From: Naegleria gruberi
Taxonomy: Eukaryota
DNA: 13,269 bases
Strand: one strand, 5' to 3'
Assembly (NCBI GenBank): GCA_000004985.1
Contig: GG738997.1
Part shown: positions 2,395-13,269 of the stretch, in pieces
Layout of the letters: each line of letters opens with the position of its first letter
How positions within the stretch are numbered: the stretch's first letter is position 1
The notes under the pieces: model-generated
The model's input: the letters and a program-made list of their open reading frames with translations, nothing else
Database searches by the model: none
Told to the model about the DNA's origin: nothing
Translations under genes and position numbers: made by a program

Positions 2395-3116
2395 GTGAGA
2401 AGAGCATATTATTCGATTTTCGGTAAACAAAAAACAAAAAACGAAACCGAAACCGAACCGGAAGATGACGATGTTTCCGAAAATGTTGATGAAGATATGA
2501 TAGAAAGACAAGAATTTACTGATAGAATGGACAGTTATCTTGCTGAATCTGAGCAAAAAACTGAGAAGAAGAGAAAGAGACAACTTGAGAAGGAGCCAAC
2601 TTATGATGATGAGATGATGAATGTGATTACGAACAATCAGATGAAGATTACGAATATTCGGATGAAGATATTTTACCGGCAACTCCGTCGAAAGTAACAA
2701 AGGTAGTGAGCATTAATGACAAATCAACAAGTTTATTCCGTCCTTTTAGATTCGAATCAGAGACTCATCGCTTCATCATTTATAGATTTCCCACATGGAC
2801 TGATTTTAAATTTTCACATGTGGAGATGTCAAAAGAAAAGATGATAGTTATTCATGTGAAGATTAATGCTAAACTTTCCGAAAGTTGTGTAGTAGAATCT
2901 TTCGCTCCATTTGCGAAAAATTTAAAAGCGAACACTGACAGAAAGGATGAACAGTTCACCATCAAAGAACCGGTTCCGAAAGATGTTGATGTTAAAACTG
3001 TAAAGTGTGGTCCTTTGAATTTGAAAGGCCTTAGTAGTACCGTTTCAGTTTTACCTAGTTGTAATAAACATCGGAAATCTATTTATGAATTTACACAAAA
3101 AACTCGAGGAAGTTAA
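2395..3116 (+). other. Two adjacent ORFs of uncertain reality: an acidic 100-aa ORF at 2395..2697 and a 136-aa ORF at 2706..3116 (first in-frame ATG near 2824). They may be TE-associated or decayed coding sequence next to the Harbinger remnant.
   Basis: The ORF track only. No in-frame ATG near the start of either ORF. No recognisable domain and no Myb/SANT W-spacing. Confidence 0.15.
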
Positions 3117-3122
3117 ATGATC

Positions 3123-3126
<4 letters not shown>

Positions 3127-3164
<38 letters not shown>
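3127..3164. repeat. (AT)19 microsatellite in the spacer between the 2395..3116 ORFs and the 3' end of the minus-strand gene
   Basis: Direct reading of the sequence. Confidence 0.95.
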
Positions 3165-3167
<3 letters not shown>

Positions 3168-3178
3168 TATTTTCAACA

Positions 3179-4176
3179 TCAATTTGTTCCAGTTAATTTT
3201 AAATCCATAGCTCTAAGAACCTCGTTAAAACCATTTGTCTTTTTCTTGTTGTTAAAGTTTTTCCTTGCTTTGATGAAGGATCTGTTAAACTCCAAAACAG
3301 TATCATCTAAAAACAATTTTTCCTCTTTGTTCACATCTAATTCAACTAAAGTATCCTTCAGCTTGTATTGTTTTCTAGTAATTGTTACATCTTGTACCTT
3401 GAAAATATCATTGTTCAATTCGTCAATAATCAATTTCAATTCATTTCTACAGGCAATAACTTCTGATGAATTGACAGATAATCCATCATAACCATGAATG
3501 CATTTTCCCTTGTAAACTTCATTCAATTCTAACGTCTTGTTTAGCATTACAAATTTCTTATTTTTGTAATCTAAAATCTTATCTTCAGTATAATTTTTGG
3601 AATTCGCAGCCATAACCCCAAATGCAATTTCTCCAATTTCTTCGGAGAACATAGTAAAATTTTCCGTAAAAAAGTCATGAAACGTTTTGGACTTCTTCTT
3701 CCAAAATTCAAATAACAAAGATTGGAATATTTCTGCATTCCTATACAAGTTATGTTTTCCCAAAATAAATAGGTATGTTAATACATCTCTAGATAATGAA
3801 AATTCATTCCAATTTCCAACTCTCAATGCATAATAATAACTTCTAAGGGCTGGTAAAATTGTCTCAAAAAGAATTGTAAAGTTTTTGGCAGCTATCGTAG
3901 TAGTTCTAACATAACAATCATCAGGTAGAGTGTAGTAAGCAAGAGAAACAACATTAATTATATCAGTTAGTTGTTGTAAACCCATTGATTTTTCAAGATA
4001 GCTGGTCACATTGGGATAAGCAGCTTTCAATAAGCGCAATAAATAGTTTTTTCCAAATAGTCTCCAAGTTACAATTGATCCCATTTTATAAACGTGCCAG
4101 AAACCGTTTACACAGATAAATCTTTGTGAATAGTGTTTAAAATTAGTATAATTATGAGACAGTTGAATAATCTTTA

Positions 4177-4216
<40 letters not shown>

Positions 4217-5124
4217 AAAAAAAAACTTACCTTGTAAACTCTTTGAAAAATGTTTACATCAACCTTAAGCATTATCATTTTGTCTTTTGGATACTTTGAA
4301 TCTAGCATCATCAGAACTTGTAAAAGACCTTCGTTTGAATTTATCACATAGGGATCTAGACTTACAGTACGATACTTTGACATTGAAGTGTAGTCATTTA
4401 CGTGTCCATCTGGGTTTCTAATTGGATTATTAAAAAAACCGTCTTTTGAGGGATGTGACTGAAAAGCCCAACAACTATAAACATTCTCATCATCAAAAGG
4501 GTCAATACTTGTTATTGTGTTAAAAACAGATTCATAACAGAATCCGTCGTCCATATTAAATATTACATTATCAAATACTGTGAACTTTTGTAATACAAGT
4601 TTTTGTTTTTTAAATGTGAAACCAGTTGCTGTATAATGTTGATTTGTAAAAACAGCTCGTACAACCTTCATCCTTTTATAGGAAAATATTAAATCAAAGT
4701 TATCTACATGAAACACAACAAGTATATCATCATCTTCAATAATAATTTTAGTTTTTTCCTTTTCTACTCCATAAACTCTATCAAAGTGTCTGTAGAATGT
4801 TGTTTTAAATAATCTATTTTGTGTAAAACTTTTGATAATTCATTACTTACCCCATATCACAAGAGCTTAATAAATACTCGGCAAAACTGTTTGAACAGTT
4901 ATTACGAATAAACATGGCATGAAGAAATCTTTGTTTGTTGTTGTTTCTTTTATGATACTTTAAAAGTGTTAAAACATGAATATGAAACTTCTGCTTATAA
5001 TTCCACAATTCTTCTGAAGTAATATCATTATTGAAAATTAGTAAATTTTCTCTAGAAAATTAACAATTAGACTGGTAAATGTGTGAACAACATACCGTTC
5101 CTTAATAACAAATGATTCAAACAT
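3179..5124 (-). CDS. Four-exon gene on the minus strand encoding a 601-aa protein of unknown function. CDS join(5124..5096, 5051..4851, 4813..4231, 4171..3179), with introns 5095..5052 (44 nt), 4850..4814 (37 nt) and 4230..4172 (59 nt, containing (TA)16).
   Basis: The ATG at 5124..5122 is followed by a gtatgt donor. The phases at all three junctions are consistent: CG|A gives R, GG|A gives G, and a phase-0 join gives K|I. The total CDS is 1806 nt, which is 602 codons. In-frame stops in the introns force splicing. Polypeptide begins MFESFVIKERENLLIFNNDITSEELWNYKQKF and ends KLTGTN. I recognise no conserved domain. Confidence 0.7.
4181..4212. repeat. (TA)16 microsatellite inside intron 3 of the minus-strand gene
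   Basis: Direct reading. Confidence 0.95.
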
Positions 5125-5151
5125 CTCGGAGTTTCCTTTGAACACTAAGAA

Positions 5152-5186
<35 letters not shown>

Positions 5187-5347
5187 TACTTCAACAACAT
5201 ACATAAAGATGGGTATTCTTGGTTGAAAATTGATGAGGTTGTACTAGGGTGAATGACATTGTACCCTTTCAATTTGAAAAATGCGTCGTACAACCAAAAC
5301 TGCTCAATTTTCATGTATTTGTTTTGTTGTTGAAAATTTAAAAAAAA
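5125..5347. promoter_or_regulatory. Bidirectional promoter region shared by the divergent genes (minus ATG at 5124, plus ATG at 5348). It contains (AT)14 at 5155-5182 and three GTAC-core motifs, including the 8-bp inverted pair GGTTGTAC (5237-5244) / GTACAACC (5288-5295).
   Basis: The geometry of the two reconstructed genes. The inverted repeat was read directly from the sequence. Confidence 0.4.
5155..5182. repeat. (AT)14 microsatellite in the divergent promoter
   Basis: Direct reading. Confidence 0.95.
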
Positions 5348-5823
5348 ATGCCAAAATCACCTTCAGCAAAAACAAACAAACCAACAAGCCCAAATCTTAC
5401 AAAACCACAACCTCCATTCAAGAGACAAGCAATTCCGTTGCCGGAAAACATTGAACTTTTAAGTTGGAAGAGAGGAATTAATTCAAACAATTATATTTCT
5501 AACGGTGATAATTTTTGGTCTTTCCGTTTTGAAGATGGTTTGTTAACATTAACAAACTATCCGATGAGAACTGATGATGACGACCATCAAGTGGTTGATA
5601 TTTCCGGTGGCAGTAAAGTCGTAGGTAAATTGATGACTGTTGCCCATGTTGCTACTGATCCTAAAAGTGTCAATCAGGTTATTGGAGTAACTGTATTGAC
5701 AAATAGTGGTGTTAAAAACTTGGTTTTGCGCTTTGGTGATCTTCTAACAAGTGAGTTTACAAAGGAGAGCGGATTTGACCGCTCCCACTGTAAGAGGGTT
5801 GATATTTTTGTAAGTAAGTATCG

Positions 5824-5858
<35 letters not shown>

Positions 5859-6494
5859 ATATATCTAGAACATTGGAATAGTTATTTAACAGAACAAATG
5901 CAAAATGAGGGTGATGACGAAGCATCTAAAGATAAGACAACCCCAAGCAGGGATAAAAAGTCAAATCCATCAATTTTTGATGATGAAGATGAGAATGAGG
6001 ATGATGGTGTTAGTAAACAACTCAACTTTACTCAAGAGGACGTTCAAGATTTTAATTCCTCTAAAGAAACACCATCAGTTTCGAAGCTTAAGATCAAGAA
6101 AAGTAAGTACTAACTTGTTTATGTTTGTGTTAACAATTTGCAGAACCAAGAGCTTCTCTTACTTCCTCTTCTTCCTACGTTGTAAAAGGTTCAATGTCAA
6201 CCTCTAAAATTGCCTCCATCATTGTACCTAAAACAGACACACCTACCAACAAGAAAGATTTAGAGCTTGGTAGGACTGGAGAAATAATCAAACAATTTGG
6301 TTTTCCTGCTAGTGTCTCCATTAAGGTAACAAGAATTAAAGTTCCAGAGTCATCCATAGCTGTTCGTGAAATCAGTTTAGAGCATGTAAAATCAATTGTT
6401 GATGAGATTAGAGGTGGTGGAAAAGCGTTGAGCTCCGAAGTTGGTTTGGTTGAGATGAAAGTCGCTCCAAACAGTTCTGCTTCAGGTATGTAGT

Positions 6495-6537
<43 letters not shown>

Positions 6538-6975
6538 CAGTGACTATCAAAAATCTTGTACAAAAGTTGAAAAGAGAGAATAGGGACGAAGATGCAATAA
6601 TGGAAGAATTGCAAGAATTAATTGAGAACGATGAAGAAAACATCGAACTGTTTGTGCATGGTAGTACTCATTATACCCTTGCATTAACAGCTGCTTTTCA
6701 ACAATTACCTCAGATTGAAAGGACATCTGAAAACACACCTAGACATGACTATGTAAGTTTATTAATAATTTCTTTTCTTATTGTATTAGTATGTTGTATT
6801 CAATATCCCAGATCATGAGTTATTGCAATTAGCAACAATGCACAATACAAACGTCAAACAATTAGCTATGGATTTCCCTTCAATACTTATTAACGTGAGA
6901 AGAACCTTAAAATTCTTTCTAACGAAATATCCTAACTCTGTAATGTACGTTAACTCAGATGGAATAGAAGGTAAG

Positions 6976-7006
<31 letters not shown>

Positions 7007-7710
7007 TTTTTCACAAATAATTTTTTCAGAGAGGAGACTTATTAGATTTGTGGAAGGAGGAGCAAAGCTTTTTAAAAGCGAAATAATTAAGGTATTTGGT
7101 CTCAATGAAAACTCAGCAATACACTATCAGACTCTATCATTTTGGTCTCATAGATGTTGGGATAGGCTTGTTGAAATTGCTAAAACTAAAAAGAAGAATA
7201 GTAATACTCCTTTACTTAAAAGTTTAGCTACTTTTATTACAAAGGTTGGTAGTTGCAAAGGTATTCCTGAAGAAGAGATATATTATTCGCTTGAGCAATT
7301 CTTGAATTTTGGTAACATTCAAAGTATGGTTAATCATATCAATCATACCAAGTGTGTATTATTTGGATTTAGCGAAATTACAAAGTATTTTTCTGAAATA
7401 CCTGATTTAAAAGGAATGGCAAAGAGACTTCCAAACATTTACAAAGCATTAGTTAGTGATTCAATGCACGACTCAGAATTGAAACAAGTAGAAGAAAAAA
7501 CATTGTCATTCACTTCCACCGACTTGTACTTAAATATTAGAAGAGAGTTAAGTGGAAACCCTAAAACTTCTTCGACTACAGATGTATCATTTCCAGTTGT
7601 GACAGAACAGTTGAAAGTAGAACGAAATGGTTATTCGGCAATATTATTATATGGAGATGTTTTGGAGTTAGCAAACATCTTTCCAAAGAAAGTATCGTAT
7701 GGTAAGTTTT

Positions 7711-7748
<38 letters not shown>

Positions 7749-8635
7749 CAAATGTAGATTTAATGATTTGCGATTTGCCATATGGTGTTTTTAAAGATTC
7801 CCCTTATGATGTCTTATTTACTGATGACCAATTGAAAGAGTTTATTGACAATTTATACCAAATCACTCCAGACACGAATTTTCCAACTTGGATCTTCTTT
7901 GGGGAGTATAAGCAAATTGTAAAGCTTCAAGAATTAATTGAACTAAAGAAAGGCAATGCAGTTATATGTATTTGGGTGAAAAATGGTCGTCAATTTGGTG
8001 CAAACTTTGGTACGTATAAGTATGAAAGCTTCCTTCTTTGCTTCCCCAACAAGCAAGTGAATATCAAGCCACAGGGTTTCAGTTTATCACCATTCAGTAT
8101 TTGCTTTCCATCAGAGACTAACTTTTTGAAAGACTCCAACTCAAGAGAGTGTAACAAGGGTCAGAAGCCTCTTTCTTTAATTTCGTGGCTTGTTTATCAA
8201 TTTTCCAACGTTGACGGTATTGTTCTTGATTTATGTTCGGGAACTGCCACCACAGCAGTAGCTGCAGTTAGTTATGGTAGAAATTCGATCAGTTTAGAAA
8301 GTAATCATGGCCAATTCGAACACGCTGCAGAACGACTCAAATTATCAGAATTTGAGAAGGTAAATTTTGAACCCTTAGTTGTTTGTACAGTATCTGAAGA
8401 CAAGGAAAAAAAGGAAAAAAAGAAATCTACAAAAAGAAAAACAGCACCCACCAAGAAAACACCGAAAAAAGCAAGCAAAAAGAAAAAAACTGAAACACCT
8501 TTAAAGGGAAGTAAAATGCAATCGAAAAAGGCAGAGGAAATTGCGATGAAATACATAGACAGCGAAGCAGTAGAAATGGCATCTGATGAAGAGAATGTCA
8601 GCGAAAAAGATGAGGAAGAAGATGATGAAGAATAG
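5348..8635 (+). CDS. Seven-exon gene encoding a ~994-aa protein. Its C-terminal third is a beta-class (motif IV then motif I) N6-adenine/N4-cytosine-type DNA amino-methyltransferase domain (N6_N4_Mtase fold), followed by a Lys-rich basic tail and an acidic tail. CDS join(5348..5813, 5869..6102, 6144..6485, 6541..6752, 6790..6970, 7030..7701, 7758..8635).
   Basis: Every junction is GT-AG and phase-consistent, and the exons sum to 2985 nt (995 codons). The first intron's acceptor is ambiguous (5868 or 5892), and both options stay in frame. The 37-nt intron 6753..6789 is forced, because an in-frame TAG sits immediately before the exon-5 start. MTase motifs: LLYGDVLELANIFPKKVSY|D|LMICDLPYG (compare GDxLExLxxLPxxSVDLIxTDPPY), GQKPLSLISWLVYQFSNVDGIVLDLCSGTATTAVAAVSYGRNSISLE (compare TQKPxxLxxRLIxxxSxxGDxVLDPFxGSGTTxxAAxxLGRxxIGIE), and HGQFEHAAERLK. 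Tail: KEKKEKKKSTKRKTAPTKKTPKKASKKKKTETPLKGSKMQSKK ... SDEENVSEKDEEEDDEE-stop. Confidence 0.85.
5827..5854. repeat. (AT)14 in intron 1 of the methyltransferase gene
   Basis: Direct reading. Confidence 0.95.
6498..6529. repeat. (AT)16 in intron 3 of the methyltransferase gene
   Basis: Direct reading. Confidence 0.95.
6981..7006. repeat. (AT)13 in intron 5 of the methyltransferase gene
   Basis: Direct reading. Confidence 0.95.
7714..7745. repeat. (AT)16 in intron 6 of the methyltransferase gene. This intron interrupts the MTase catalytic domain.
   Basis: Direct reading. Confidence 0.95.
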
Positions 8636-8649
8636 AGGGAAATGATATT

Positions 8650-8655
8650 AATAAA
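8650..8655 (+). terminator. AATAAA hexamer 15 nt after the TAG stop of the methyltransferase gene. Candidate polyadenylation signal.
   Basis: Motif presence only. AT-rich genomes contain many chance AATAAA hexamers. Confidence 0.3.
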
Positions 8656-8676
8656 ATGAATTAAACGAGTTGTTGT

Positions 8677-8678
<2 letters not shown>

Positions 8679-8708
<30 letters not shown>
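8679..8708. repeat. (AT)15 microsatellite downstream of the methyltransferase gene
   Basis: Direct reading. Confidence 0.95.
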
Positions 8709-8711
<3 letters not shown>

Positions 8712-8868
8712 CACAAGTATTAGTTAAAATACTAAAACATTAAATTTCAAATCTCTAAAAACAACAAAAAAAAGTTTATGAATCTACAAAACTAAATACT
8801 AAAAATCGAATTATGACCAAGAAATACACTAAACCATCAAACGGTACTACTAAGAAGGCGTTTACGAT

Positions 8869-9120: not shown

Positions 9121-9378
9121 ACAATTTCACTTCTGCTTTCATTCGAATTTCCGAATTTTCCTGTTTTTCCGTTAAGTCGGACACAGCTCATTGATTGAAA
9201 CAGAATTGCAATTTCTTGAGAGAATGATGACCTTTCAACTCGGAGTTTTCTCGTTTACCCGCAACGATAAAATCCTTAAAAAAATTTTTACGCAAAAAAA
9301 AACGTTTTTAACCTTTCTGTGCGATTTCTGCGTTCATCAAAAAGACACCACAAAAAACACAAGAAGGGACAAAAAACT

Positions 9379-11920
9379 ATGAAGCCTTTAGCTGTGATGG
9401 TGAAAGTGGAGCCTGGGCAACAACAACAATCGCCATCCACTCCATCCACACCAACCAATTCCTCCTCCACCAATAATACCACAAATAATTCTCATATTGC
9501 TTCTAGTGGTCACCATCATCATGTGGGTAATAATCATAATCATCAGCACAATAATTTAATCATGATGAATCCGAGTTCATCAATTTACCCTTCCTGTTTG
9601 CCTCTTGCTATGAAGAGCAATTCTTCCTCTTTTATTCCTTCCCAGACACCTCCACCTCCACATCAACAAGGATTCAGTCTTCCTTCCATTCATAATTTGA
9701 CTTCACAACAACCATCTTCAAAAGTCATGGTGGATCACATTCATCACTATCAACAACAACATCCACAATCGTGGCGTGGTAATAATATGGAACCAAAACC
9801 ACCTCTTCATAGTAATGGTGGTCATGATTTGATGGAAGCCTTGTCAGCACAACCACAAACTATTGTAAGATATGCACCTCCTCTTTATCAAGCCATTATT
9901 CAACCAAGTATTGATATTGTTCCTATGGATAGTTTTATTCCTGGCTATATATCTGGATACAGAAAGACTCCACAGCAAGTAACAATTGGGACAAGTCCTG
10001 AAATGCAACCATCATCTAATCCTTCCTCTTCCACAACAACTGGAATTATTGTCACAAACAGTCCTACCATGACACCAGTTAAGGTTTCTCACTGTATTGC
10101 TGACCAAGAGTTGGTAAAGACAACACAATCAGTAATAGTGGCCTCCTCATCCGCCCAACAAGCCCCTTCATCCAATAACACCCAAACCCAACAACCACCC
10201 ACAGATCCAAGTCAAGCCAGAATGGCATGTATAAATTGTAGAAAATCACATCGTAAATGGTAAGTATTTTCAATGTATTAGGCAGGTTGTTATTGACTCT
10301 AATTTAGTGGTAAGTATTTGTAGAGATTACAGTAAAATTTACAGACCCCATTTTAAAGATAAGGGAATGCCTTGTGGTGAATGTAAAAAGAGAGGAATAC
10401 CTGATGAATGTGTTTATTATGAACCTAAGAAGAGAGGACCAAAGATGAAGACAGCTGAAGAGGAAGCTCAAAGTAAGGAGGAAGCAAAGAAAAGAAAGGT
10501 CTCTAAGAAGAATGAGGTTCCCTCTGCAACAGTAGTAGATTTGGAAAGGACCAATCTATTGCAGTCTAACTCTCAGATAATTGCCTCCAGCAGCTCCAAT
10601 GCAGCAACTACCACACCAGTAATCCCAGCCCTCTTCTCTAGAAAGGAAATTGATAGAAGAAATTACATTTTACACATGATCTTCCCTGAAGCAAACCTCC
10701 CTAATGATATTAAGGAAAACTGTCCAGATGATAGCTTTAACGAAATGTTTCGTCTCTTTTTATCAGATGAATTCGTTAGCTTTTTGGTTGAGTGTATGGA
10801 TGGTAATAAGAGTAAGAATCAATTGATGCCTTTCATTAGAGAAAAGGTTCTCCTCTCTATTCTCAATAGAATTATGGAACCATACTACCACGGCATGTAT
10901 TTTTCCCTAGAGTCTCTCTTTTTGAAATACTATTGTCTATTCAAGCTCTCCCCACATGATGATAATAGACCAATCTTATTGTTAGAAAGTGAGAAGAGTG
11001 TAAAGCAAAATAAGAAGGATTTCAATATTATCACCAATGACATACAGACTATAATTTGTAATCTGTGGAGTTCCTTCTTTAATACCATCCTCGAATTCAA
11101 GAGTGTGAATTCATCCTACAATCAACTCGTCATTAAGAATATGCTTGATCTAATTGTGAACAAGTTATCAGAGAATGTTGATATTCAAAGTGTATTGGAG
11201 TTACAACATGCTCTATTTACCAGATACTTGTTGCTCATTGAAATCCATCAACAGATTGAGGGATGTACAACCAATAGTGTACAGTTCAAGAAATTGGTGT
11301 TCAACTTTCTCAAGCTTACTTACCTCTCTGGAATCACTACGAAATCAGCAAAACTTGTCGATCAATTTGAAAAGTTTAACACGAAATTCTTTGCCATTCT
11401 CACTAGTCAGTACAGCTCCATGTCACTGAATACCAACTATGTTATGGCAGAAATGGAATGCTTTATTCCAAGAAACTTGACAGAATGTTTGACCTTCTTG
11501 AGCGTTATCACATCAGAAGGGGAGCAAGATTTGGAAGTTCTCTTCTTGGAGTACATGTCCAAGTTGTTGAACTTGAGTATTTACATGCAAGGTATTCTCA
11601 ACACTAACGATAAGAATCTTCAAGAAATGAATGCAAGCGTTGGGAAAGATTTCTTCCACATAGCCAAGAACCTCAAATCTCCAATTATTCTTTCAATCCT
11701 CAATTCCCTGCAGAATTATCTCATTACCTCCTTTTTTGAAAATACTATATCTATTCCAGAGTCTCCACAATTGGAAAATCAATTTAAGGAACGTATTTTA
11801 ACTAGTGCCAGTCAATTTGAACATCAAGATCATTTCTACTTGAGAGCAAGTAATTCTCTAATTCGAGGAAAAGATTTGTCAGAGATGCGGAAAGAGTCAA
11901 AGAAAGTATTTATAAAATAA
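9379..11920 (+). CDS. Zn(II)2Cys6 (fungal-type binuclear zinc cluster) transcription factor, about 822 aa, two exons. CDS join(9379..10259, 10333..11920). A low-complexity Q/H/N/S/P-rich N-terminal region of about 280 aa precedes the zinc cluster. A basic linker and a large C-terminal region follow it.
   Basis: The ATG at 9379 sits in an A-rich context (aaaaaact ATG). Exon 1 ends ...ACINCRKSHRK + tg. The intron has a gtaagt donor and a ttacag acceptor at 10331-10332. The splice restores TGT (Cys), giving ACINCRKSHRK-C-KIYRPHFKDKGMP-CGEC-KKRGIPDE-C, which is CX2CX6CX13CX2CX8C. The two exons sum to 2469 nt (823 codons). The spacing is within the known Zn2Cys6 range. The C-terminal domain was not matched to a named family. 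Confidence 0.75.
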
Positions 11921-11930
11921 TCTTGTAATA

Positions 11931-13269
11931 TTATTTACCATAGTATGGGATTGTGTTCTTCTTTCTGGAGAACCAAACATTTCTCTTACCAGTCTTGCCC
12001 AAGTATGCAGTGATTGCTTCAACTGAAACTTCGCTTCCTCTAAAGATTTTTGGTGTGGATGATTTGAAAAAGAGTCCTGAAATTCCTGAGCTATCTTCTA
12101 AAACAACAACCTTATCATAGTATGCATTCAAAATGTAACGAATGGGCACAGCATCGTCTGCTGTCAATTCAGTAATAATGTGATCAATCATAAAGGAGAG
12201 TGTTCTCAAACCACCAGCAAAGACATCATCTGACTTTTTAGAAATATCAACCTTTAGCAAATTGATATGAATATCTGCCGAGAAGTAGTCCTCATCGAGT
12301 GAGATGGTTTCAACAGATCCTGGAGTCTTACTTTCAGTTTCCTCATCTGCAGTAACAACATTTGTAAGATCAGCATTGTACTTGGTTGAGTATTGAATAT
12401 ATTTTCTGGCATCTCTGAAAACAGCCAAGTTTTTAACTGAAACCAATTTGTCAACATCATTTAGAGATGCAGAACTCTTAATCACTTCCACCATTTTTGG
12501 TTGAATTTCATACGAGATAACTTTACAACCCAACAGTGCAGGATAAATTGAATAAAATCCCAAATGAGAACCAACATCAACAATGAGACACTTCTTTCCA
12601 GTTATTTTTGAATCTCTTTGGAATTTCTCAATTAACATTTTGAATAGTTCTTCAGTTGCTGATTCCCAATTGCCATATCTAACCATGTGCTTTGAAAATC
12701 CAGTATCTCTAGCAGGATTCAACACTCTCATATAAAAGGATGGATTGGTATTTGTTTTTACAATATACCCAACAAGTCTATTATCATCTCTAACCAATGG
12801 AATCAAACCCTTTGGTTTGTTAGATTGTACAGCAATTAAAATCATAAATATCAATCCAATAACTGCCAATACAGAAATAATCAAATTCCTTGAAGGCAAC
12901 TTGTCCAAAAATGTTAAATATTTCGCTTTAATTCCACACATTCTCAATAAATTTCTAAATATTCTCGGAATGAAAGAAAAGATACTTCCAAGCCTTCTCA
13001 TCCAAACACCAGAAAAAGCCTTCACCGATTTTTCTCCCAAAATATTACTTTCATGATTTAATATTAATGGGAGTTGTTGATTTAAAGTACTACCACCACC
13101 ACCACTAGTAGCCATCTCCTCATCCTTTGATGGTGGCGATCGGGAAATTATATTAGATGAAACTGTTGTTGTTGTATTGGATCGGTTAAAGTTAGTCATG
13201 ATTGGTGCGAGTTCATCATCATCGGAATTATTTATTCTGATCAAAGATGACGACAATGAAGAATCATTA
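11931..13269 (-). CDS. FkbM-family (Methyltransf_21) SAM-dependent methyltransferase with a predicted N-terminal transmembrane anchor (LIISVLAVIGLIFMILIAV). It is 5'-partial: the reading frame stays open to the right edge of the window and the reported TTG start is not the true start.
   Basis: Motifs: KKCLIVDVGSHLGFYSIYPALLGCKVISYEIQPKMVEVI (compare vfDvGAniG..slyfa..ga.rviafEP of FkbM), and INLLKVDISKKSDDVFAGGLRTL (compare idllKiDvEGaE). Single exon over 441+ codons. Stop codon TAA at 11933..11931. Confidence 0.8.
   Translation of the reverse strand, partial: NDSSLSSSLIRINNSDDDELAPIMTNFNRSNTTTTVSSNIISRSPPSKDEEMATSGGGGSTLNQQLPLILNHESNILGEKSVKAFSGVWMRRLGSIFSFIPRIFRNLLRMCGIKAKYLTFLDKLPSRNLIISVLAVIGLIFMILIAVQSNKPKGLIPLVRDDNRLVGYIVKTNTNPSFYMRVLNPARDTGFSKHMVRYGNWESATEELFKMLIEKFQRDSKITGKKCLIVDVGSHLGFYSIYPALLGCKVISYEIQPKMVEVIKSSASLNDVDKLVSVKNLAVFRDARKYIQYSTKYNADLTNVVTADEETESKTPGSVETISLDEDYFSADIHINLLKVDISKKSDDVFAGGLRTLSFMIDHIITELTADDAVPIRYILNAYYDKVVVLEDSSGISGLFFKSSTPKIFRGSEVSVEAITAYLGKTGKRNVWFSRKKNTIPYYGK

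Follow-up and report, generated by a model that had tools for sequence, protein, structure and literature searches.

The window analyzed here, i.e., the whole 13,269-base-pair (bp) stretch of DNA, is a complete, AT-rich scaffold of Naegleria gruberi (contig GG738997.1 of assembly GCA_000004985.1; GC 23-41%). NAEGRDRAFT_76461, a gene located at 5348-8635 on the plus strand, comprises seven exons and six consensus GT-AG introns, and its 994-amino-acid (aa) product carries a genuine prokaryote-type beta-class amino-methyltransferase domain. The coding sequence (CDS; 994 codons plus a stop) was modeled by enumerating all GT..AG pairs at the six junctions between open reading frames (ORFs) and by retaining only combinations that leave the frame open between the ATG at 5348 and the stop at 8635. 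A single top-scoring open model was obtained, the runners-up of which differ only in the acceptor of intron 1 or of intron 4, and the spliced product shows 100% identity, end to end, with a deposited N. gruberi "predicted protein" (EFC35877.1, XP_002668621.1, and UniProt D2W4X4). The enumeration reproduces the seven exons and six phase-consistent introns that had previously been proposed from the DNA letters alone (hereafter, the original prediction), although the donor of intron 1 implied there, at 5810, is out of frame and opens no reading frame with any acceptor; the actual donor lies four bases downstream at 5814 and is the second GTAAGT of GTAAGTAAGT.

Exons 1-7 are located at 5348-5813, 5869-6102, 6144-6485, 6541-6752, 6790-6970, 7030-7701, and 7758-8635, and all features of the gene described below are on the plus strand. 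The introns are 37-59 nucleotides (nt) in length, with GTAAGT donors in five cases and a GTATGT donor in one, and the pooled GC content is 14% in introns vs. 35% in the CDS. Briefly, intron 1 (5814-5868; 55 nt, GTAAGT..TAG) contains an (AT)n run, intron 2 (6103-6143) is 41 nt long (GTAAGT..CAG), intron 3 (6486-6540; 55 nt, GTATGT..CAG) contains (AT)16, intron 4 (6753-6789) is 37 nt long (GTAAGT..TAG), and intron 5 (6971-7029; 59 nt, GTAAGT..CAG) contains (TA)15. Intron 6 (7702-7757; 56 nt, phase 1, GTAAGT..TAG), with another (AT)16, lies five codons ahead of the first residue (D) of motif IV and interrupts the methyltransferase fold between the first strand/helix and motif IV, such that an intron indeed splits the structural domain, as had been proposed. 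Eight (AT)15-21 microsatellites of similar lengths (30-42 nt) are present on the scaffold, all within 3123-8708: four in the introns of this gene, one in a probable intron of the divergent upstream gene, and the others at 3123-3164, at 5155-5186 just 5′ of the ATG, and at 8679-8708 just 3′ of the stop. No such microsatellite is found in the intron at approximately 10262-10307 of a downstream gene, and the intron homologous to intron 6 in a relative (locus L017, described below) holds a short (TA)5 only.

The methyltransferase domain, a beta-class (permuted) N6_N4 amino-methyltransferase, is encoded at 7632-8365 (aa 680-905), as delimited by Pfam, Foldseek, and profile comparison. The PF01555 (N6_N4_Mtase) match expected on the C-terminal third was found at aa 703-893 (E 4.8e-9; 36.9 bits vs. 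a gathering cut-off of 26.7), and it spans positions 2-220 of the 221 positions of the profile. DNA-methyltransferase families of PHROG also match the product (best E 1.7e-19), NCBIfam gives sub-threshold matches to YhdJ-type, CcrM, and PRK13699 models (the last one weak, E 4e-4), and CcrM is the top sequence match in the PDB (7e-6). In an AlphaFold2 model of aa 255-915, the methyltransferase part is confident, with block means of approximately 80-93, and a Foldseek search of the PDB with this model recovered CcrM (1.8e-12), followed by M1.HpyAVI, MboIIA, M.BceJIV, RsrI, PvuII, and rotifer N4CMT; the E-values for CcrM, M1.HpyAVI, MboIIA, and RsrI range from 1e-12 to 1e-8. Profile comparison of the domain with its relatives gave 99.5%. 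With regard to membership in the MT-A70 family (AMT1, METTL3, and METTL4), no match to PF05063 was found, and MT-A70 structures were recovered only as distant fold matches (E approximately 1e-6).

The motifs are arranged in the permuted order, IV before I, that had been predicted, i.e., YGDVLEL...SYDLMICDLPYG (aa 686-713), GQKP (aa 837-840), and VLDLCSGTATTAVAA (aa 858-872), but the predicted letters differ: motif IV is DLPY (7772-7783; aa 708-711) rather than DPPY, the following helix carries GQKP (QKP at 8162-8170; aa 838-840) rather than TQKP, and motif I (IVLDLCSGTATT, 8219-8254; VLDLCSGTATT at aa 858-868, with DLCSGTA at 860-866) reads SGTATT rather than GSGTT. Relatives came from an exhaustive HMMER search across 1.84 billion representatives, and the analysis as a whole retrieved 173 proteins. 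Among these 173, DLPY is the commonest form of motif IV (82 vs. 31 with DPPY); it is typical of a large set of stand-alone prokaryote-type enzymes of approximately 250 aa and is kept in every close relative of the Naegleria protein. DLPY is thus a subfamily signature, probably not a sign of decay, and it agrees with the "unusual" strand-4 motif described for a Naegleria clade by Iyer, Zhang & Aravind (2016, BioEssays; PMC4738411).

The N-terminal two-thirds of the product begin with a region at 5450-5812 (aa 35-155) that has no Pfam match and resembles, by eye, the N-termini of relatives P0040 and P0039, followed by an acidic, Ser/Thr/Lys-rich low-complexity linker at 5880-6208 (aa 160-255). 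The next segment, aa ~285-440 (6296-6855, across introns 3 and 4), adopts a ParB/sulfiredoxin fold by structural comparison of the model; a domain-only AlphaFold2 model of aa 280-480 reached a predicted local distance difference test score of 77 and a predicted template-modeling score of 0.70, with an input alignment of 10 sequences. When the 661-residue model was compared with predicted structures of viral proteins, its alignments to several phage proteins 400-520 aa long extended over 490-590 columns, i.e., beyond the methyltransferase alone, and one of these phage proteins is annotated as ParB/Sulfiredoxin. Furthermore, the Naegleria segment "SIKVTRIKVPESSIAVREISLEHVKSIV...ELFVHGSTHYTLALTAAF...YVVFNIPDHELLQLATMHNTNV" aligns to a block conserved in long relatives ("...TRE...HV..L...TIGGNH(S/T)R.AL..L...DVF...EEARA.GF.DN"), in which the family motif TIGGNH(S/T)R corresponds to a degenerate VHGSTHYT (6654-6674). 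At the sequence level, Pfam ParBc (PF02195) matches neither the Naegleria protein nor its long relatives, a PDB profile search for ParB in the N-terminal region was negative, profile comparison (hhalign) with a bacterial ParB-methyltransferase gave a probability of 1%, and Pfam found no ParBc in those of the closest DLPY-type prokaryotic enzymes that have N-terminal extensions; of the tests for ParB, the comparison of folds was the one with a positive outcome. The same domain order is present in P0170, a prokaryote-type fusion of PF02195 ParBc and PF01555. The core architecture is thus that of a mobile-element ParB-methyltransferase, and the ParB-like module may well have been transferred together with the methyltransferase. 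The original prediction had described approximately 600 aa of non-bacterial sequence ahead of the methyltransferase; this description is only partly right, since the fold of aa ~285-440 is the one that usually accompanies this methyltransferase in phages and plasmids.

The ParB-like domain and the methyltransferase are separated by a helical middle region (6856-7589; aa 441-665, from the secondary structure of the model). Part of this region, aa 477-586 (nt ~6964-7352), has a 45%-identical stand-alone homolog in Willaertia magna (tblastn), and the exhaustive search likewise matched W. magna proteins P0020/P0168 to aa 473-587 at 43% identity. The homolog is a small gene (KAL9644336/7; L098 10001-11876, JBEGDK010000149.1) located amid housekeeping genes. 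Either the helical region may be a heterolobosean module in its own right, or the W. magna gene may be what is left of a lost full-length gene. Partial matches in the exhaustive search also include P0139, over aa 290-403, and P0143, over aa 509-763.

Downstream of the methyltransferase, a lysine-rich basic tail (8396-8530; aa 916-960, 44% K) precedes an acidic C-terminal tail (8531-8632; aa 961-994). The succession of a basic and an acidic tail agrees with the original prediction, but the likeness to a linker histone does not go beyond composition, since no Linker_histone domain (H1/H5) was detected and PF01555 is the only Pfam match at E <= 1. With a criterion of K+R >= 40% in a 30-residue window after the domain, a basic stretch was found in 10 retrieved proteins, all of them eukaryote-like, and in none of the approximately 120 short prokaryote-type homologs; the prokaryote-type P0170 ends in a short K-run. 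The basic tail is a conserved family feature of the eukaryote-like relatives, and its composition is consistent with nuclear import and DNA binding.

Word-indexed protein searches, with either full-length or family-alignment queries, returned almost no relatives; for the full-length query, low-complexity words likely swamped the candidates. In the exhaustive set, the closest relatives are AT-rich and are encoded by exon-like series of ORFs separated by gaps of 28-44 nt. In one of them (locus L017, protein P0021, ~34% identical), a GTGAGT..AAG intron is present at the same position and in the same phase (1) as intron 6, breaking a codon five residues ahead of DLPYG. The Naegleria-like sequences group together in 99 of 100 neighbor-joining bootstraps; support is limited to this clade, so that the tree places neither a sister group nor the donor lineage. 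Closest among prokaryotic proteins are small enzymes of the DLPY type, together with a few plasmid and phage genes at 25-28% identity, and because prokaryotic, plasmid, and phage relatives are only 24-28% identical, no recent donor is identifiable. The GC content at third codon positions (GC3) is 0.29, and the codon usage resembles that of neighboring genes. This host-like composition, the six introns, and at least one intron older than the split from a 34%-identical relative indicate that the transfer is old. An intron-split gene of host-like composition with a prokaryote-type domain also bears out the horizontal origin and eukaryotic residence that had been proposed. A giant-virus origin is not supported by scans of IMG/VR, in which the hits of a family alignment were confined to the methyltransferase part of viral proteins and a Naegleria-type alignment had no hits at all. 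A scan of metagenome DNA with Naegleria-like motifs recovered generic enzymes only, as ~25%-identical full-domain or partial C-terminal matches, and no other N. gruberi-labeled PF01555 protein surfaced in the protein searches.

Two branches can be distinguished among the relatives, i.e., a Naegleria-like branch on AT-rich metagenome contigs and a second branch of 900-1100 aa with TIGGNH(S/T)R on many metagenome contigs. Proteins of 890-1104 aa with the methyltransferase near the C-terminus include P0026, P0027, P0031, P0040, and P0048; P0069 is a 736-aa partial sequence, the cluster of which includes the 1032-aa P0171. A wider family of long (670-1104 aa) eukaryote-like proteins (P0026, P0027, P0031, P0040, P0048, P0069, and P0039; contigs L001-L004) has a common layout that begins with N-terminal low complexity and the TIGGNH(S/T)R ParB-like block, continues with a helical region and a DPPFG-type methyltransferase, and ends in a K/S-rich tail, and its genes are intronless where the DNA was checked (P0027 and P0031; L001-L004). 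The related P0039, of 670 aa, belongs to the EukProt set for Ginkgo biloba, and a shortened relative, P0035, is labeled as a Cytophagales metagenome-assembled genome, which may be mis-binning. The Naegleria gene may be a member of a broader eukaryotic family that combines ParB/sulfiredoxin and helical regions, a D-type methyltransferase, and a basic tail.

The remainder of the scaffold contains a 72-nt tandem array at one end (8-562; 7.7 copies, 83% matches, higher-order period 285), which probably explains why the scaffold is short, and an ORF on the minus strand (1726-2370) encoding a Harbinger/PIF-type transposase, DDE_Tnp_4 (E 1.4e-16), that covers positions 1-116 of the 158-position profile and is probably a fragment. 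A divergent two-exon gene at 3179-4716 on the minus strand (ORFs 4174-4716 and 3179-4084) has no significant Pfam match and weak HEPN_MAE_28990 and CYTH matches; an intron with GTAAGT, a T-run, and (TA)n between the two ORFs is suggested by the repeat output, and the product shows no similarity to neighbors of the relatives. Downstream of NAEGRDRAFT_76461, a gene whose long N-terminal part is rich in Q/N/S/P/H (9319-11920, plus strand) encodes a Zn(2)Cys(6)-like cluster (ACINCRKSHRK / ...PCGECKKRGIPDEC) that is split by the intron at ~10262-10307, with a Pfam Zn_clus match at E 0.02, below the cut-off. The last ORF, of 441 aa (11931-13256, minus strand), has a hydrophobic stretch that by eye is a possible membrane anchor and a Rossmann-type motif, VDVGSHLGFYS; Pfam yields nothing stronger than weak matches for it (TRM5-TYW2, E 0.005), and it is not related to NAEGRDRAFT_76461.

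We propose that the core of the protein derives from a methyltransferase that a prokaryotic mobile element (phage or plasmid) carried, with a ParB/sulfiredoxin domain ahead of a permuted beta-class N6_N4 domain. The N-terminal region, the acidic linker, the helical region shared with Willaertia, and the lysine-rich and acidic tails are additions of the lineage that are seen as sequence features. The basic tail would provide nuclear localization and non-specific DNA binding, and the ParB-like and helical modules may place the enzyme on DNA; since the nucleotide-binding/catalytic motif of ParB is degenerate, the role of the ParB-like domain is probably structural. With S-adenosylmethionine as the donor, the methyltransferase would methylate a flipped-out base at its exocyclic amine. 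In the N6_N4 class, an acidic first residue of motif IV is typical of adenine-N6 enzymes and a serine of cytosine-N4 enzymes, and the acidic D of DLPY would favor adenine N6 over cytosine N4. The segment from motif IV to QKP looks short in the sequence, which may point to a short or relaxed target site. Because a second adenine context is not reported in vegetative N. gruberi methylomes, the activity, if any, is probably conditional, i.e., stage-specific, low, or locally targeted. The domestication as a chromatin protein and the candidate epigenetic system put forward in the original prediction are still inferences.

Overall, the best explanation is that NAEGRDRAFT_76461 is an old mobile-element ParB-methyltransferase that now is a resident nuclear gene, directed to DNA and, if active, probably only conditionally so, and we hold this reading as a whole with somewhat better than even confidence. 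Its identity and origin, i.e., a resident nuclear gene of N. gruberi with a mobile-element-derived core, are nearly certain. Its activity, which from sequence features would be nuclear, DNA-directed, probably at adenine N6, and conditional or low, is proposed tentatively, at slightly less than an even chance. Bacterial contamination or a chimeric assembly would fit a domain family that is overwhelmingly prokaryotic, but the six spliceosomal introns, one of them within the domain, the host-like GC3, the eukaryotic flanking genes on the scaffold, the closest relatives, which are also intron-containing and AT-rich, and an identity of at most ~28% to any prokaryotic protein leave this prospect negligible; the original prediction had judged it unlikely, and the host-like GC3 and codon usage, the AT-rich introns, and the intron conserved in a relative effectively exclude it. 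Several observations weigh against the preferred reading. The second glycine of motif I is an alanine in the Naegleria protein, and the arginine of the ParB motif GGNHxR is lost (VHGSTHYT), so that a catalytic or CTP-switch role (CTP, cytidine triphosphate) is unlikely for the ParB-like domain, which has the fold but is probably inactive as a ParB-type CTPase or nuclease. No ortholog in other Naegleria species was found in either protein database search, and the W. magna locus has no ParB-like part nearby and no methyltransferase within 10 kb. A 2025 study that searched its own N. gruberi proteome with PF01555 obtained no matches (PMC12344493), and in nanopore methylomes of N. gruberi, AT is the main methylated adenine context, with methylation called in only 644 genes, and is attributed to AMT1 (PMC12695648); both studies speak against constitutive activity. 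Furthermore, the gene is located on a small scaffold beside a Harbinger-type transposase fragment, and adenine vs. cytosine specificity is not reliably readable from sequence (PMC8885841).

A decaying or inactive relic, i.e., a fold kept as a DNA- or protein-binding scaffold or a silent gene nearing loss, would accommodate many of these points: the altered motif I together with a non-canonical motif IV, the degenerate ParB motif, the lack of an ortholog from other Naegleria in the protein searches and the restriction of the Willaertia homolog to the middle region, the failure of one proteome search to detect the gene (PMC12344493), and methylomes in which a second adenine-methylation context was not reported (PMC12695648). 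However, the 994-codon frame is open through seven exons with consensus splice sites; DLPY and the glycine-to-alanine variant (SGTATT) occur in many prokaryote-type homologs that are presumably active, the latter, for example, in P0025 and P0033 as well as in relative P0021; the catalytic and cofactor-binding D, P, Y, QKP, and D..G are all retained; and close relatives have the same motifs. The catalytic motifs thus seem, by comparison with homologs, to be probably maintained rather than decayed, and the missed PF01555 search, set against the 36.9-bit match found here, suggests that the gene may be missing from the proteome of that study. We consider a relic unlikely, although it and mobile-element cargo are the main rivals. 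That the gene travels as cargo on a mobile or selfish element of eukaryotes, the DNA of which the methyltransferase might mark or protect as its prokaryotic ancestors do, instead of serving the host as a chromatin factor, is suggested by the 13-kb scaffold with its terminal 72-nt tandem array and the DDE_Tnp_4 (Harbinger) fragment at 1726-2370, by the patchy distribution among heteroloboseans, and by long relatives that lie on short metagenome contigs beside unannotated ORFs. Nonetheless, no terminal inverted repeats around the gene were found on the scaffold, and a lone 16-nt inverted pair (3030-3045 / 8839-8854), considered as element termini, does not extend and is close to chance expectation, which we estimate at approximately 0.1 such pairs. 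No neighboring ORFs are common to the scaffold and the contigs of the relatives, and among the latter neighbors Pfam gave only a weak DUF6589 match; a second copy did not appear in the protein searches, nor did a relative bearing the N-terminal domain in the viral contigs of IMG/VR. An association of the gene with a mobile element is therefore possible but unsupported, and we regard the cargo explanation as rather improbable. Activity on another substrate, either DNA at cytosine N4, the target of rotifer N4CMT and the Marchantia enzyme, or an RNA base, would agree with the repeated switches between N6-methyladenine (6mA) and N4-methylcytosine (4mC) in the N6_N4 family, in which sequence alone is not decisive (PMC8885841), with the recovery of the N4C enzymes PvuII and rotifer N4CMT by Foldseek, and with the RNA targets that Iyer et al. 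(PMC4738411) propose for some eukaryotic clades. Motif IV begins with D in the Naegleria protein, however, whereas characterized N4C enzymes of this class and the RNA-linked clades of Iyer et al. carry S (PMC4738411 and established motif knowledge), no RNA-binding domain is present, and the ParB-like domain and lysine-rich tail indicate DNA; this alternative is very unlikely.

If active, the resident nuclear methyltransferase would give Naegleria, beside AMT1, DNMT1, and Tet, a second system for DNA amino-methylation, one that stems from a mobile element, and would represent a third independent eukaryotic recruitment of a bacterial-type N6_N4 enzyme, after those of bdelloid rotifers and Marchantia. 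More speculatively, and with little probability in our estimate, the broader family might write a second adenine (or cytosine N4) mark that is independent of AMT1 and conditional on life stage, loci, or mobile elements, a condition that would explain its absence from vegetative methylomes. As the deposited proteome holds a PF01555 protein above the Pfam threshold, claims that 4mC writers or 6mA writers other than AMT1 are absent from N. gruberi need to be re-checked. The clade is already noted in comparative-genomic reviews, which very probably cover this gene, such that the novelty is low; what is added here is the assignment of the ParB/sulfiredoxin fold, the intron conserved in a relative, the basic tail shared across the family, and the relatives beyond Naegleria.

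The closest known systems include a clade described from comparative genomics. The rarity in eukaryotes that the original prediction attributed to this family needs correction: according to PMC4738411, eukaryotes took up adenine methyltransferases on at least 13 occasions, one of the acquisitions being a permuted clade found only in Naegleria, and rotifer N4CMT (PMC8885841) and the Marchantia enzyme are further cases. This Naegleria-only "Clade 3" of group-1 permuted N6A-methyltransferases, with its unusual strand-4 motif, is traced in that text, which cites Iyer et al. (2011), to methyltransferases with which conjugative (type-IV secretion) elements counter restriction (PMC4738411). On every point that could be compared, NAEGRDRAFT_76461 resembles Clade 3, i.e., in its Naegleria source, its permuted domain, its unusual strand-4 motif (DLPY), and its kinship to methyltransferases of prokaryotic mobile elements, and it is very probably the Clade 3 protein or a member of the clade, a match of description rather than of accession; its accessions were not found in any of the papers searched. 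The weak PRK13699 match fits an origin from a conjugative element, PRK13699 being linked to conjugative plasmids. By contrast, the available text of PMC4738411 mentions no ParB/sulfiredoxin fold, no basic tail, and no eukaryote-like relatives beyond the genus.

Phage and plasmid ParB-methyltransferase fusions (P0170 and BFVD A0A6J5MMM5) have a like order of ParB/sulfiredoxin domain, linker, and beta-class methyltransferase, and structure alignments to them cover both domains. However, these fusions are intronless proteins of 400-500 aa in which the ParB motif is canonical and motif IV is mostly DPPY, whereas the Naegleria protein has a degenerate ParB motif that escapes Pfam ParBc, a helical insert of ~225 aa between the domains, and low-complexity segments and tails of eukaryotic type. 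The stand-alone DLPY enzymes of bacteria and phages (~250 aa; class structures CcrM, M1.HpyAVI, MboIIA, and RsrI) have the same fold and the same DLPY...QKP...D..G.G signature, but their identity is only 24-28%, and as single-domain proteins they lack a ParB-like domain, a helical region, and a basic tail. AMT1/MTA1c, which belongs to the MT-A70 family and is the DNA 6mA writer known from eukaryotes, is present in Naegleria (PMC12695648) and has a permuted amino-methyltransferase fold that acts on DNA adenine, with 7yi8 and 8xyx as distant structural matches; it differs in its family (PF05063), its ancestral presence in eukaryotes, its DPPW motif, its heterotetramer with p1/p2, and its ApT specificity. 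Finally, N4CMT of bdelloid rotifers is a characterized acquired enzyme that writes a eukaryotic DNA mark (PMC8885841; PMC10406627; structure 8s9o), and a 4mC methyltransferase of Marchantia sperm acts during spermatogenesis (preprint, bioRxiv 10.1101/2021.02.12.428880). Both are horizontally acquired N6_N4 enzymes in eukaryotic genomes, as is the Naegleria protein, and N4CMT also has introns and an added chromatin-targeting module, a chromodomain in place of the ParB-like domain and basic tail of the Naegleria protein. The two enzymes are nevertheless independent acquisitions that act at cytosine N4 with demonstrated activity, whereas the Naegleria protein is known from sequence and models. 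They provide a precedent for an acquired gene becoming an epigenetic writer, possibly one that is restricted to a life stage.

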